Shown: positions 52,379-61,405, numbered from the stretch's first letter. The stretch is DNA of 64,000 bases from an uncultured Chloroflexia bacterium (GCA_963748625.1 CAVVJT010000004.1:160001-224000); one strand, 5' to 3'. Numbers and translations: made by a program. Notes: a model not told the origin generated them from the letters alone.

Positions 52379-52708
52379 TCAGTCGAGGTGGAACAGCTCA
52401 TCCATCGAGGCCCACCACTCGCCGGGCGCCCGATCCTCGAGCGGCTCCTGGAGCGGGCTGTTGACGGCCCACCAGGCCTGCGTGGCGGGATCCTCGGCCA
52501 TCTTCTGCATGTCTGCCTGGTAGTCATCCCCCACGTACTCGAAGTACGAGAACAGCCAGCCACCCCTGTGGAAGATCGTGTAGTTGCGGATGTTGCACGC
52601 GGTGATCATCGAGAGCACCGACGGCCAGACCGCCCGATGCAGCTCGGCATACCGGGCCAGGTTCTCGGGCGGCACGCGAAGGACGCTGCCGTAGCGCTGC
52701 ATGGTCAT
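52379..52708 (-). CDS. L-rhamnose mutarotase family protein
   Basis: YAELHRAVWP...IRNYTIF...LFSYFEY...TQAWW...MDELFHLD. Confidence 0.85.
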   Translation of the reverse strand: MTMQRYGSVLRVPPENLARYAELHRAVWPSVLSMITACNIRNYTIFHRGGWLFSYFEYVGDDYQADMQKMAEDPATQAWWAVNSPLQEPLEDRAPGEWWASMDELFHLD

Positions 52709-53790
52709 CGTTCTCCTGCTGTCGTGACGAACGCTCCGCCGCGATGTGCCGCCAGGTATTCCGTGGCGAACCTGTCGTCGCCCAGGACGACGGCGGCCGC
52801 GAGGCGGAACGGGTGCGAGGTGCGCTCAAGTGTCCGGACGTGATCGAGCTGTACCGACGCCGGATCGAGAATCCCTGAGTCAACGCCGGCGTCCATCGCG
52901 AGCGCGACGAAGGTCTCGTTGAGCAGCCTCCGGTTCGGCAGTCCGAAGCTGATGTTCGATAGACCGCCGGTGATGTGGACCTCGGGTCCGTGGTTCGCAC
53001 GGAACGCCCGACTCGCCCCCAGGAACGTGCTGCCGCCGTCGCACTCGATGCCCGCGGGGAGCACCAGCAGGTCGACGTGGCAGGCGGCGGGAGCCACGCC
53101 CCGCGCAAGCGCGGCCTCGAGCATCGCCTCGGCGCACTCCAGGCGCTCGCGGATGCCTGGCGCCGCACCGCCACCCCGGACTGCCGACAGCACGACCGCG
53201 GCATGTAGCTCGGCAGCCAGGTCGAGCACCTCAAGGCGCTCCAGCGAGGCCGAGTTCAGCAGCAACGGTCCGCTTGGCGCGCGGCTCGCGCGCAGTCCGG
53301 CCTCCAGCACCTCAGGGCTCGACGAGTCCAACGACAACGGCACGCCGAGCTCGGGCTCGAGCAGGCGGACGAGCCACGCCATCGTCAGACAGCGCACGCC
53401 GAGATCCTCGTCGATGTCGTCGACGTTGACATCGATGTACCGCGCGCCGGCCCGCTGCTGGCGGACGGCAGCGGCCACCAGGTACGCACGTGCGTCCTGG
53501 GCGGCTTCCGGCGCGATGCCGCCGACGCGCCTCGCCGGCAGCAGTCCGTCGCCGGCGAGGCCCAAGAGCAGCGCATTCTTGATGTGCTTCACCCGGAGCC
53601 GCGCGTACTCCTCGGAGTGCGCGATGGACGCCGCAATCGGGCACGTGCGCTCGGTGCCGGACGCATCGAGGAACTGCAGGACCTCCGCCCCGTCGAGCGT
53701 GGCCATGCTCTGGCCGCGGCGCGCACAGGTGCGTGACGCGTGCACGTTCTCGCCGATCACCACGAAGGGCTCGGCCTGGTCGGCGCTCAC
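52705..53790 (-). CDS. pterin-binding methyl-THF:corrinoid methyltransferase (AcsE / MetH folate-domain-like)
   Basis: IGENV, IDVNVD, LSLDSS, LNSAS, GGLSNISFGLP.R..LN..F. Confidence 0.8.
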   Translation of the reverse strand: MSADQAEPFVVIGENVHASRTCARRGQSMATLDGAEVLQFLDASGTERTCPIAASIAHSEEYARLRVKHIKNALLLGLAGDGLLPARRVGGIAPEAAQDARAYLVAAAVRQQRAGARYIDVNVDDIDEDLGVRCLTMAWLVRLLEPELGVPLSLDSSSPEVLEAGLRASRAPSGPLLLNSASLERLEVLDLAAELHAAVVLSAVRGGGAAPGIRERLECAEAMLEAALARGVAPAACHVDLLVLPAGIECDGGSTFLGASRAFRANHGPEVHITGGLSNISFGLPNRRLLNETFVALAMDAGVDSGILDPASVQLDHVRTLERTSHPFRLAAAVVLGDDRFATEYLAAHRGGAFVTTAGER

Positions 53791-53836
53791 GAGCGGCGGT
53801 TTCGATCGAGGGCCGAGGTGGTCGCGGGGTCGCCGG

Positions 53837-54463
53837 CTACCGGGCCAGCAGGCCGCGGGCCAGGTCGACGGCCGCACCGGCATCGGGGGCGTAGCCGTCG
53901 GCGCCGATCTGCGCCGCGAACTCGGGGGTGACCGGCGCGCCGCCCACGACCACCCTGGCCCGCAGGCCCGCGGCCCGCACGGCCTCGACCACGCCGCGCA
54001 TGCCGGGCATGGTCGTGGTGAGCAGCGCGCTGATGCCGATGATGTGGACGTCGTGCTCCCGGGCCGCCTCGACGAAGCGGGCCGCCGGGACGTTGACACC
54101 GAGGTCGATGACCTCGATGCCGCCGCCCTTCCACATCATGCCCACGAGGTTCTTGCCGATGTCGTGGAGGTCCCCCTCCACCGTGCCCACGATGGCCCGG
54201 AACTCGGGGGTCACGCCGGCCGCGAGCAGGGCGGGCTCCAGGATCTCCGTGCCGGCCTTCATGGCCCGCGCGGCGATCAGCATCTCGGGGACGAACAGCT
54301 CGCCCTCCTGGAACTTGCGGCCCACCACGTCCATCGCCGCGGTCATCGCGTCGAGGACCGTCGTGGGGTCGAGCCCCTCGTCGAGGGCGGCCTGGGTGAG
54401 CTCCGCTGCGGCCTTGCGGTTGCCCGCCTCCACGGCGGCGGTGAGGGCGGCGAGGTCGGCCAT
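53837..54463 (-). CDS. corrinoid (B12-binding) protein
   Basis: FVPEMLIAARAMK cap domain; GTVEGDLHDIGKNLV (DxHxxG), ISALLTTT, VGGAP. Confidence 0.92.
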   Translation of the reverse strand: MADLAALTAAVEAGNRKAAAELTQAALDEGLDPTTVLDAMTAAMDVVGRKFQEGELFVPEMLIAARAMKAGTEILEPALLAAGVTPEFRAIVGTVEGDLHDIGKNLVGMMWKGGGIEVIDLGVNVPAARFVEAAREHDVHIIGISALLTTTMPGMRGVVEAVRAAGLRARVVVGGAPVTPEFAAQIGADGYAPDAGAAVDLARGLLAR

Positions 54464-54494
54464 GGTGGTGCGTCTCCGGTAGGTCTCGTGGGGC

Positions 54495-59628: not shown

Positions 59629-59665
59629 GTGGTGCCCGGCCGAGGTGTGTCGGGCCGGGCACCAC
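59629..59665. repeat. 13-bp inverted repeat / stem-loop inside the operon
   Basis: GTGGTGCCCGGCC ... GGCCGGGCACCAC. Confidence 0.7.
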
Positions 59666-59722
59666 GCTGAAGGAGGAGCGAGGGTCGGGTGGAGAGGTCG
59701 GTTGTCCAGGAGCACCGCGCCG

Positions 59723-60379
59723 TCATCGGGCAGGTTCCGCGAGAAGGCGGCGGGCGACGTCCACGGCCATGCCTGCGTCGAGCGCCCAGCCGTCGGCCCT
59801 GATGTCCGAGGCGAACTCGTCCGACACGGGAGCGCCACCGACGATGATCCGGACCGGCACGCGCGTGGCGCGGACGGCCGCCGTCGCCTCCCGCATGGAT
59901 CGCATCGTGGTGGTGAGAAGGGCAGACATCCCGACGATGTCCGGGCGGTGCTCCACCGTGGCATCCGCAAAGGTGGCTGCCGGCACGTCGACGCCAAGGT
60001 CGATGACCGCGATGCCGGCGCCCCGCCACATCGCTGCGACAAGATCCTTGCCGATGTCGTGAAGGTCGCCCTTGACCGTGCCGATCAACGCCAGGTGACG
60101 GGGCTGCGCCCCGCTCGACGCTGAAAGCGTGGGCTCCAGCAGCGCGAGCGCGCCCTTCATCGCGCGAGCGGCGATGAGCATCTCGGGAACGTAGATCTCG
60201 TTCTTCTTGAACGCCTCGCCGACCAGGGTCATCCCCGGGCCGAGATAGAGCTCGATGATCCGGTGGGGATCCTCGCCACGGTCGAGGCAGCGCTGCGTCT
60301 CGGCGATCGCCTGTTCGCGCTTGCCTGCGACGATCGCAGCGGTGAGCGGGTCGAGGGGGAGCATGGACCGCATCGTCAC
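59723..60379 (-). CDS. second corrinoid (B12-binding) protein
   Basis: YVPEMLIAARAMK, GTVKGDLHDIGKDLV, MSALLTTT, VGGAP. Confidence 0.9.
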   Translation of the reverse strand: MTMRSMLPLDPLTAAIVAGKREQAIAETQRCLDRGEDPHRIIELYLGPGMTLVGEAFKKNEIYVPEMLIAARAMKGALALLEPTLSASSGAQPRHLALIGTVKGDLHDIGKDLVAAMWRGAGIAVIDLGVDVPAATFADATVEHRPDIVGMSALLTTTMRSMREATAAVRATRVPVRIIVGGAPVSDEFASDIRADGWALDAGMAVDVARRLLAEPAR

Positions 60380-60469
60380 CGCAATCCGATGGGCGTTCTT
60401 GTATACCGGTTCGAAACCTTTGTAGCAGCGTCCGGATCGCTCGTCCGCAGGGGGTTCCGGGGCGACGGG

Positions 60470-61405
60470 TCAGCCGGCCAGGTCGACACCCGGCTCGATC
60501 GGTCCCTCGTCGGCAGCGGCGGTTGCCTGGCGCGGCCGGTTCGCCTCACGGAACTGGCGCGGCGTCAGCTGCTTCGCGTGCGCGAAGACCTTCGTGAAGT
60601 GGCTCTGGTCGAAGAAGCCGCATCGGTCGGCGATGGTCGCAAGCGGCTCGTTGGTCGTGAGCAGGAGCTCGCACGCCAGGTCGACGCGGGCCTGACGGAG
60701 CAGTTGCGAGAACGACAGGCCCGTCTTCTCGCGAAGCATGTAGGAGAAGTGGCTCGGCGACACACCGACACTCCGGGCGGTCTCGTCGCGGGTGAGCTCT
60801 CGGTGGGCGTTGGCCCGGATGTAACGAACGGCCTCGGTGATGACTGGAGCCTGCAGGGCCTGGCGCTGGCCTTCGATGGCGGTGAAGATCTGCTCGATCG
60901 TGGTGCGCAGCCACTCCGCGAGCTGCTCGTCGTCGCGGACCTCCGCCAGCGCCGTCAGGCATTGGAAGTTGATCCCCAGGACCGCGGACGGGCTCGATCC
61001 CGCCGCGACCGCCGCCCGCGACATCATCACGACCAGCTCGAGAAGCAGCCCCTTCAGCAGGTCACTGCGCTCCTGGCCGGCCGAGTAGATGTGCACGAGG
61101 ACGTGGTTGATGAGCCGCCGGGCCTCGCCGCGGTCGCCGCGGCTGATGGCGTCCATCAGCGCCGGCTCCAGGGCGAGATAGAACTCCCTGATGCCGTCGT
61201 ACGGCTGGAGCTCCGACAGGGCGATCGATGGGAAGTCGTTCTCCTGGATCGACCGGCGCTCCGCCCGCCGGGTCGCACGGAGGCTGGCCGGAGCCCGACC
61301 TCCATCACCAGTGGCCCCATCGCTCGCTGGGGCTGTCGTCAATGTCCGCTGGACGGGTTCGGTCACAGCAACCTTCGGCATCCACTGTGCGGCAGCCCTG
61401 GCCAC
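60470..61405 (-). CDS. AraC-family transcriptional regulator (start uncertain)
   Basis: C-terminal double HTH: VSPSHFS...KTG.SF...IADRCGFFDQSHFTKVF...TPRQFR. Confidence 0.88.
   Translation of the reverse strand: MARAAAQWMPKVAVTEPVQRTLTTAPASDGATGDGGRAPASLRATRRAERRSIQENDFPSIALSELQPYDGIREFYLALEPALMDAISRGDRGEARRLINHVLVHIYSAGQERSDLLKGLLLELVVMMSRAAVAAGSSPSAVLGINFQCLTALAEVRDDEQLAEWLRTTIEQIFTAIEGQRQALQAPVITEAVRYIRANAHRELTRDETARSVGVSPSHFSYMLREKTGLSFSQLLRQARVDLACELLLTTNEPLATIADRCGFFDQSHFTKVFAHAKQLTPRQFREANRPRQATAAADEGPIEPGVDLAG

Follow-up and report, generated by a model that had tools for sequence, protein, structure and literature searches.

We analysed a window of 64,000 nucleotides (the whole stretch of DNA considered here, GCA_963748625.1, CAVVJT010000004.1:160001-224000) from an uncultured soil Chloroflexia bacterium, and describe in it an operon of nine genes at positions 52379-61405 which, with good probability, encodes a corrinoid (B12)-dependent demethylase of some methylated sugar. 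By a modest preponderance of the comparative evidence, we favour the narrower reading that the operon is an uptake and O-demethylation system for methylated L-fucose, and we infer 2-O-methyl-L-fucose, methyl position included, to be the leading candidate substrate. An original prediction, made from the DNA sequence alone, had proposed the import of a methylated monosaccharide and its B12-dependent demethylation. This proposal is supported by the fucose-type mutarotase of the operon, by the linkage of such genes to the putative demethylase gene in other genomes, and by a predicted complex between this enzyme and a corrinoid protein. The substrates then suggested (O-methyl-rhamnose, O-methyl-fucose or a methyl-inositol) can now be narrowed by comparative evidence to O-methyl-L-fucose.

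Gene content of the operon

Since the G+C content of the whole window is 72%, genes were picked by third-position GC together with homology. All nine genes previously named were recovered, co-oriented on the minus strand and at the coordinates given for them, using open reading frames, a third-position GC frame check and Pfam. They are listed below in the order of transcription, with the names used in the text and their Pfam matches.

60470..61405, minus strand: AraC-family transcription regulator (HTH_18 3.5e-22, HTH_AraC 8.1e-16; start codon uncertain)
59723..60379, minus strand: CoP1, corrinoid (B12) carrier protein (B12-binding_2 8.8e-20, B12-binding 2.1e-24)
58330..59586, minus strand: MT1, methyltransferase of the uroporphyrinogen decarboxylase (UROD)/MtaA fold (URO-D 3.3e-21, residues 220-418 only)
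57302..58333, minus strand: CUT2-type ABC permease (BPD_transp_2 3.7e-39)
56099..57259, minus strand: substrate-binding lipoprotein (Peripla_BP_4 1.3e-39)
54495..56000, minus strand: fused double ABC ATPase of a CUT2 importer (ABC_tran 1.8e-51, two domains)
53837..54466, minus strand: CoP2, second corrinoid protein (B12-binding 2.8e-28, B12-binding_2 1.7e-19)
52705..53817, minus strand: MT2, pterin-binding methyltransferase (Pterin_bind 1.4e-18; start codon uncertain)
52379..52708, minus strand: FucM-type L-fucose mutarotase of the RhaM superfamily (rhaM 8.3e-30)

The genes lie head to tail, and a single operon fits this arrangement because the gaps between them are short (-4 to about 130 bp). 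There are two 4-bp overlaps, in which the permease gene overlaps the stop codon of MT1 and the FucM gene that of MT2. The N-terminal sensor part of the AraC regulator had no Pfam match.

The mutarotase is of the L-fucose type by sequence

The last protein of the operon had been described as rhamnose-mutarotase-like, of which the superfamily has stood and the sugar has not. It matched the L-fucose mutarotase structures 7BYU and 7BYW over its full length with an E-value of 2.9e-33, whereas the L-rhamnose mutarotases 2QLX and 1X8D were matched at only 4.7e-4 and 1.4e-3, and its score against the RhaM equivalog model TIGR02625 was 36.7 as against a cut-off of 99.6. The mutarotases adjacent to MT1 in a Verrucomicrobiota locus and in Sporanaerobium behaved likewise, with fucose-type values of 7.4e-30 and 7.1e-36 and rhamnose-type values of 4e-3 and 5e-5, respectively. 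Judged by these similarities, the window protein is a mutarotase of the L-fucose type, FucM. FucM serves as the mutarotase of a non-phosphorylating fucose pathway (PMC11199699, in part; this mark denotes papers cited from part of their text). In the system represented by 7BYU and 7BYW it is coupled to a fucose dehydrogenase, a lactonase and a dehydratase, while the window FucM is found with a methyltransferase operon instead.

FucM homologues from Verrucomicrobiota loci of the scan described below (for example L097:6033-6434 and L093:8747-9148) carry N-terminal lipoprotein signal peptides, and would therefore act outside the cytoplasm, beside an SSF symporter gene.

Fold, family and metal-site motif of MT1

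MT1 matches Pfam URO-D over its C-terminal half only. Its AlphaFold2 model (pLDDT 94.8) has, at the level of the fold, the TIM barrel of a substrate:corrinoid methyltransferase, and in a Foldseek search the top match was MtaA (4AY7, E 5e-15, TM 0.70), with true URODs at about 1e-10 to 1e-11. At the sequence level MtaA was matched with an E-value of 1.1e-6. Identification of MT1 as HemE was rejected, the URO-D match being partial and the structural matches to UROD some four orders of magnitude weaker than that to MtaA; Pfam detected no haem-synthesis genes in the operon or its flanks. MT1 does not fall into the MtaA/CmuA family as modelled either, since it scored 52.7 bits against TIGR01463 (cut-off 235.4) and 46.8 against MtaA_Meth (cut-off 400). 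A profile search of the PDB with MT1 added only UROD 4WSH (2.2e-4) and CdmB 9RUI (2.7e-3), and the protein atlas gave nothing beyond clusters of Verrucomicrobiota and Bacillota that bear the name 'URO-D'. MT1 falls into a conserved clade, as yet unnamed, whose relatives are labelled 'uroporphyrinogen decarboxylase' in the public sources that name them, and which comprises at least 120 clusters at 67-92% identity among the matches listed.

Residues H309, C311 and H396 of MT1 were invariant in 46/46 aligned orthologues, and the triad His-x-Cys...His was found in 77 of 78 orthologues. H309 and C311 align with the HxC of MtaA, and H396 with its later Cys. In MtaA these residues bind zinc. The His-x-Cys...Cys zinc site of the MtaA/CmuA family is thus replaced at its last position by an invariant His in MT1, whereas MtaA-like paralogues which sit with RACo and homocysteine methyltransferase genes retain the H-C-C triad. 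The His-x-Cys...His triad is a probable zinc site of MT1.

It could be argued that the methyl donor of MT1 is no sugar but, for instance, a methoxy-aromatic, a methylated thiol or amine, or chloromethane, and that the sugar transporter and FucM are incidental neighbours. To our knowledge, the corrinoid-dependent UROD-type methyltransferases characterised so far all act on such donors; the profile match to the chloromethane enzyme CdmB, weak as it is, and the presence of at least five other corrinoid methyltransferase loci in the host also agree with this explanation. We nevertheless regard it as very unlikely, since MT1 scores far under the MtaA/CmuA cut-off, MT1 and MT2 share 4-bp overlaps with the permease and FucM genes, and FucM and sugar transporter genes are linked to it again and again, in varying order and under nine phylum labels.

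Corrinoid proteins, MT2 and the predicted MT1-CoP1 complex

CoP1 and CoP2 are 55% identical, and both contain a cap domain and a Rossmann domain with the motif DxHxxG...SxL...GG (Pfam). D105, H107, G110, S152, L154, G181 and G182 (CoP1 numbering) were invariant in all 19 aligned corrinoid proteins. Complex prediction for MT1 with CoP1 gave scores of 0.81, 0.81 and 0.80, the best of three controls reaching 0.01; the pLDDT of the partner did not fall below 78, and the runs had 66% or more of their contacts in common. In calibration the mark used was reached by 58/80 solved complexes and by 2/110 mismatched pairs, a calibration that is only rough with self-supplied alignments. The predicted interface involves residues 221-230, 272-282 and 316 of MT1, and 19, 60-72, 109 and 112 of CoP1. 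The model supports, short of proving, binding of MT1 to CoP1, and it cannot distinguish CoP1 from CoP2; any pairing of a given corrinoid protein with a methyltransferase is a suggestion here.

MT2 is recognised at the domain level as a pterin-binding component (Pterin_bind). Its best NCBIfam model is PRK07535, a methyl-tetrahydrofolate (methyl-THF):corrinoid methyltransferase domain, at 156 bits against a cut-off of 259. This match would also suit a pathway running in the reverse direction, in which MT2, like MetH and AcsE, charges the corrinoid with the methyl group of methyl-THF. The UROD-fold enzyme would then methylate an acceptor, for instance a sugar or, in the manner of MtaA with coenzyme M, a thiol. 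MtaA, the closest solved relative of MT1, is indeed a methyl-cobalamin:thiol methyltransferase, and some Verrucomicrobiota loci hold a homocysteine S-methyltransferase together with MtaA-like H-C-C paralogues. In MT1, however, a His stands in place of the last Cys of MtaA, which sets it apart from the neighbouring thiol-type paralogues; its context of importers, fucosidases, FucI and a fuconate pathway is catabolic, and five Chloroflexota loci add FolD and/or FTHFS for C1 oxidation; and an importer combined with cytoplasmic O-methylation of a sugar would serve no evident purpose. We consider this reversal the least likely of the alternatives weighed here, and take demethylation to be the probable direction of transfer.

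The operon has a partial counterpart elsewhere in the host genome. An MT2 paralogue, 58% identical, is encoded at C10:1364575-1365651, and the AraC gene is 68% identical at the DNA level to the AraC gene of the same corrinoid cluster (C10:1365874-1366494). The CoP2 gene (window 53836-54467) is 98.3% DNA-identical to C10:1367974-1368605, and this identity ends at the gene limits, the MT2 and AraC genes beside it being only 68-69% identical to their C10 counterparts. The CoP2 gene alone therefore appears to have been converted or very recently copied; a binning artefact in this metagenome-assembled genome (MAG), with its 7.7% contamination, is a possible cause of the near-identity. Overall, the operon looks like an AraC-CoP2-MT2 core, paralogous to the C10 cluster, that has been joined to a module of CoP1, MT1, importer and FucM.

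Such a fusion of two modules, with AraC, CoP2 and MT2 represented elsewhere by a paralogous cluster, is also what one might expect if MT1 were a non-corrinoid UROD-fold enzyme of fucose metabolism (a decarboxylase or isomerase) and the corrinoid genes of the operon a separate unit. The public annotation as 'uroporphyrinogen decarboxylase' agrees with this, as do 54 of 80 MT1 loci in other genomes that have no gene of a corrinoid system within reach. Yet the predicted MT1-CoP1 complex passes its controls, a CoP gene directly adjoins MT1 or its paralogue in many Chloroflexota loci, the best structural match of MT1 is MtaA rather than UROD, and the MtaA-type HxC is invariant. Moreover, in 5/5 genomes with no CoP at the MT1 locus, stand-alone CoPs (215-266 residues, 42-62% identity) are encoded at other sites, and RACo was found in four of these five as against 1/14 control genomes. 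A non-corrinoid role for MT1 is thus very unlikely indeed, and we retain its reading as a corrinoid-dependent demethylase.

The C10 cluster itself (C10:1364566-1368605, locus L119) consists of a pterin-MT2, AraC, a protein of about 430 residues which we term 'unk434' (L119:4661-5947, minus strand), and a corrinoid protein, with 'unk434' taking the place of MT1. No Pfam, NCBIfam or PDB sequence match was obtained for 'unk434', while its AlphaFold2 model (pLDDT 83) has the UROD/MtaA fold (Foldseek E about 7e-7) and its adjacent residues C321 and C322 are invariant. Further copies lie at C10:439819-441072, C10:1383731-1384960 and C7:210363-211665, and 'unk434' occurs in 9/80 MT1 loci. Going by the modelled fold, it probably represents an unnamed family of substrate:corrinoid methyltransferases.

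Genes linked to MT1 in other genomes

A scan with one genome per species found 480 MT1 relatives, of which the best 80 loci, at 58-85% identity and under nine phylum labels, were kept: Chloroflexota 31, Verrucomicrobiota 22, Bacillota 9, Spirochaetota 8, Planctomycetota 3, Calditrichota 2, KSB1 1, Lentisphaerota 1, 'Deferribacteres' 1 and unlabelled 2. Genes in these loci were called by a codon-position model trained on MT1 and clustered, Pfam names being taken from one representative per cluster, and families were counted within 10 kb of MT1 at most. Since 11 of the 80 loci are shorter than 8 kb, every count is lowered. The main counts were as follows.

FucM: 45/80 loci (21 within 400 bp of MT1)
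GH29 fucosidase: 10/80 loci
L-fucose isomerase (FucI): 5/80 loci
MR_MLE, enolase-superfamily dehydratase: 10/80 loci
Amidohydro_2, lactonase type: 11/80 loci
FAH: 3/80 loci
DHDPS-type aldolase: 2/80 loci
At least one of the seven families above: 59/80 loci
CUT2 binding protein orthologous to that of the window: 28/80 loci
SSF symporter: 15/80 loci
CoP: 24/80 loci
RACo: 8/80 loci
DUF1638: 7/80 loci
Homocysteine S-methyltransferase: 4/80 loci, Verrucomicrobiota only
FolD: 5/80 loci
FTHFS: 4/80 loci

A fucosidase gene of family GH95 directly adjoins MT1 in 3/80 loci. In a Calditrichota locus (L059), a gene for a 983-residue GH139 homologue on the same strand stops 91 bp upstream of MT1; the protein matched 9HMB (3e-122) and 9HYQ (1.9e-86), the two GH139 structures (PMC12282258, in part). 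The founding member of GH139 frees 2-O-methyl-L-fucose from rhamnogalacturonan II (RG-II), as the beta anomer (PMC12282258, in part), and degradation of RG-II by GH139 enzymes is a plausible upstream source of substrate for the window system. The text cited does not follow the freed methyl-fucose any further. Gene order around MT1 varies widely between lineages, which argues that the linkage is not simply the shared ancestry of one block. Recurrence of these genes together in other genomes had been set as a check that could refute the original prediction; the families were found to accompany MT1 orthologues in genomes with nine different phylum labels, so that the genes do recur together and their grouping is more than coincidence.

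The same machinery might serve another methylated sugar or polyol (for example O-methyl-rhamnose, O-methyl-galactose, O-methyl-xylose or pinitol), and FucM would then act on this alternative substrate or on what is made from it. Monosaccharides and polyols of many kinds are transported by CUT2 systems, no solved protein is close enough to the binding protein to indicate its ligand, and the two to four UROD-fold paralogues that accompany MT1 in many loci suggest several substrates; nine of the 80 loci also lack all of the fucose, corrinoid and transporter families counted. On the other hand, all three mutarotases tested are of the FucM type by some 30 orders of magnitude in E-value, the linked glycosidases are fucosidases (GH29 in 10 loci, GH95 in 3, GH139 in 1), and the linked catabolic genes are those of FucI and the L-fuconate route. 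No paper connecting pinitol with corrinoid chemistry was found among open-access papers and bioRxiv, a result that speaks neither for nor against this reading. Another sugar is accordingly an unlikely substrate, if one that deserves to be kept in mind, and methylated L-fucose remains our preferred assignment.

Several lineages showed further arrangements around MT1. In Verrucomicrobiota loci the order SSF symporter, FucM, a membrane di-iron protein of the FA_hydroxylase family, MT1 was seen (L065:8988-9998; also L070, L082 and L100); one may speculate that the FA_hydroxylase-family protein is an O2-dependent alternative for the same demethylation. Four Verrucomicrobiota loci (L064, L065, L068 and L082) have near MT1 a homocysteine S-methyltransferase, CoP, DUF1638, DUF6580, RACo and H-C-C UROD paralogues. 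These sets resemble a split MetH in their gene content, and the methyl group there may pass to methionine rather than THF. In the Chloroflexota loci L035 (19094-19846) and L038 (7459-8211), a 250-residue protein without a Pfam match is encoded after FolD and FTHFS, downstream of MT1, and a TelA-family gene comes after it. Spirochaetota loci (L100:11166-13265, L102 and L104) encode beside MT1 a LacI-type repressor, with helix-turn-helix and sugar-binding parts, fused to a C-terminal URO-D domain. The architecture of this fusion is unusual, and the protein may be a regulator responding to a methyl-sugar or a corrinoid.

The importer

Pfam identified all components of a CUT2 importer in the operon: the Peripla_BP_4 binding protein, the BPD_transp_2 permease, of which there is a single gene, and the fused double ATPase. 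The nearest NCBIfam models of the permease are those of ribose, multiple-monosaccharide and arabinose permeases, all under cut-off, and the ATPase resembles AraG, RbsA and XylG, likewise under the cut-offs. The binding protein is 24% identical to that of the ordinary fucose operon of the host, which fits a different ligand for the window transporter. Its lipobox (..LFAAC) leads into a linker made of APAATE repeats.

The DNA encoding the linker repeat (57040-57190) has 78-88% matches at C10:969270, C10:447553 and C2:70300, that is, at no fewer than three genome sites, and the repeat is probably a linker common to lipoprotein binding proteins.

The host genome

The host assembly is a MAG that comprises 10 contigs and 4.6 Mb, with a completeness of 98.3% and a contamination of 7.7%, and its closest public loci are from Chloroflexota (Limnocylindrales) MAGs. 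It encodes about 7 UROD-fold paralogues, about 9 corrinoid proteins, 5 pterin methyltransferases and 3 RACo activases. There is no RACo within the operon, and each of the three RACo genes adjoins another corrinoid cluster. FolD and FTHFS are neighbours on C2, and MTHFR-family matches lie beside two other corrinoid clusters. A separate fucose operon (C10:568484-580921, L118) encodes a CUT2 ABC system, LacI, a zinc-dependent alcohol dehydrogenase, FucU, FucI and an FGGY kinase. With FucU-FucI-FucK and the one-carbon enzymes present, the products of the proposed reaction can be consumed; and since the fucose operon has its own CUT2 system, the importer of the window would not be the transporter of plain fucose. 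The L118 FucI is 89% identical to the FucI of a Limnocylindrales MAG (L033).

Flanking genes and transcription

The flanks of the operon contain unrelated genes, for valyl-tRNA synthetase, hydrolases, an EamA transporter and a DAO oxidoreductase. A scan of positions 52000-62000 yielded no promoter-like sites, and a terminator scan of the same region gave five weak, mostly intragenic sites (shuffled sequences average 2.2), which is uninformative. Of the sequence words sampled, only 5-6% were present in two metatranscriptomic libraries from two studies. RNA contigs with 90-97% identity cover parts of the genes for AraC, CoP1, MT1, the binding protein, the ATPase and CoP2; one spans the binding protein and permease genes, and a second, in which 91 letters are replaced, extends from CoP2 to the ATPase. 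These contigs derive from relatives, DNA carry-over is possible and their depth cannot rank genes, so they give at most a weak hint that the operon is transcribed.

Proposed pathway

In the pathway that we propose, the AraC regulator would switch the operon on, and the tethered lipoprotein, single permease and double ATPase would bring in the free methyl-sugar. The metal site formed by the His-x-Cys...His triad of MT1 would polarise the sugar-O-CH3 bond, and cob(I) of the corrinoid protein would accept the methyl group, giving methyl-Co(III) and free L-fucose. MT2 would hand the methyl group to THF, and the resulting methyl-THF would be oxidised via MTHFR-like, FolD and FTHFS enzymes encoded elsewhere, or spent on biosynthesis. 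FucM would equilibrate the anomers of fucose, or of the substrate, before the fucose enters the separate FucU-FucI-FucK pathway of the host, and RACo-type activases, also encoded elsewhere, would re-reduce oxidised cofactor. The nearest precedent for such an attack by cob(I) is methanol activation, in which the zinc site of MtaB activates an aliphatic C-O bond.

A number of observations weigh against this reading. Chemically, an alkyl methyl ether is harder for cob(I) than the aryl ethers of known O-demethylases. The MT1 clade has no biochemically characterised member, and the best solved relative of the binding protein, 3C6Q, is matched at no better than E 1.4e-15, which does not reveal the ligand. 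Nor does the pathway account for two corrinoid proteins in one operon. The operon itself has no fucose-catabolic gene, and since the host has FucU, which is unrelated to FucM, FucM looks redundant for plain fucose. Among the 80 loci, only 26 have any of CoP, RACo, DUF1638, pterin MT2 and homocysteine S-methyltransferase, pterin MT2 itself occurring in 5, and of the nine loci devoid of every counted fucose, corrinoid and transporter family, two are short contigs. The counted genomes are relatives and cannot be treated as independent, and the loci used for counting had also served to define the families; the link to GH139, seen in 1/80 loci, is a pointer and not proof. With regard to the host, its estimated contamination as a MAG must be borne in mind. 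A query for CbiC found nothing in the genome (98.3% complete), and the host therefore probably scavenges the corrin ring. Queries of the host genome did not find GH29, GH95 or GH139 either, and the organism would therefore scavenge methyl-fucose freed by others.

Relation to known systems

A search of open-access papers and bioRxiv found no description of corrinoid-dependent sugar demethylation, in agreement with the earlier remark that no such pathway had been described. A like division of labour is found in the three-component aryl O-demethylases of acetogens and Desulfitobacterium, with an MT1, a carrier of the MetH type with DxHxxG, a pterin-binding MT2 and a RACo-type activase, which is ATP-dependent (PMC6739815 and PMC3727330, both in part). 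Those enzymes cleave phenyl methyl ethers, whereas the context of the window points to a sugar (alkyl) methyl ether. Furthermore, the window operon has no activase and contains two corrinoid proteins, a CUT2 importer and a fucose mutarotase, and its host is a Chloroflexota MAG and not an acetogen.

With the methanol:coenzyme M system MtaABC of Methanosarcina the window shares the HxC motif, MtaA being the closest solved relative of MT1. MT1 exceeds MtaA in length by some 70-80 residues, its model shows a beta-rich insert (residues 57-135, approximately), and it has a His for the last Cys; MtaA methylates a thiol, while MT1 is proposed to remove a methyl group from an ether. The chloromethane systems CmuAB and CdmBCA also carry out corrinoid-dependent methyl transfer with UROD-type components (PMC13222342, in part), but their similarity to the window system is marginal, as seen with CdmB, and they have no sugar context.

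The sole carbohydrate O-demethylation found in print, within the same search, and in function the nearest precedent, is the P450 demethylase acting on 6-O-methyl-D-galactose in porphyran degraders (PMC6292453, in part), where a blocking methyl group is likewise removed for sugar catabolism. This route is oxidative, needs O2 and a redox partner, and frees formaldehyde, whereas the window system would be O2-independent and would conserve the methyl group on folate. No P450 domain was detected by Pfam in the nine operon proteins.

Three published candidates for a related system were set aside. The mlp clusters (PMC10418091) concern methyl-sulfur and methyl-selenide metabolism, in a text without fucose, sugar, mutarotase, Chloroflexi or Verrucomicrobia. 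A paper on fucoidan degradation (Nature 2026, PMC13668718) makes no mention of demethylation, methylated, cobalamin, corrinoid, B12 or methyltransferase. The clusters of PMC9324843 are of split-MetH type around MttB homologues, and are not sugar systems.

Significance

The architecture described here is that of a known kind of enzyme system; its substrate class, the MT1 clade and the coupling to carbohydrate catabolism appear to be new. Going further, we think it a fair question, with the chances falling a little short of even, whether MT1 is the founder of a cross-phylum group of cobalamin-dependent sugar O-demethylases, the first with cob(I) cleavage of an aliphatic carbohydrate methyl ether, which converts 2-O-methyl-L-fucose to L-fucose without O2, and whether its UROD-fold paralogues and 'unk434' are sister demethylases for other methylated sugars. 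The means to pursue this are at hand, since a cultured MT1 carrier exists (Sporanaerobium hydrogeniformans, locus L063), and 4-nitrophenyl 2-O-methyl-fucoside and related substrates have already been synthesised (PMC12282258, in part).

O-methylated sugars, such as the 2-O-methyl-fucose and 2-O-methyl-xylose of RG-II, block ordinary catabolism, and methyl-fucose and methyl-rhamnose occur in algal, cyanobacterial and microbial glycans. If the proposal is true, carbohydrate ethers would join the aryl ethers, methanol, amines and thiols on which cob(I) methyl transfer is known to act, and proteins now called 'uroporphyrinogen decarboxylase', namely the 480 relatives of the scan and at least 120 clusters at 67% identity or above, would have to be re-annotated. 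It would explain how anaerobes and facultatives of soil, sediments, guts and the ocean complete their use of methylated sugars. The substrate, 2-O-methyl-L-fucose, would come from the RG-II of pectin as well as from glycans of algae and microbes, and the methyl group would be kept on folate or, in Verrucomicrobiota, on methionine. Polysaccharide turnover would then be tied to B12 supply and one-carbon metabolism, and B12 would be a hidden need for the full breakdown of methylated polysaccharides.

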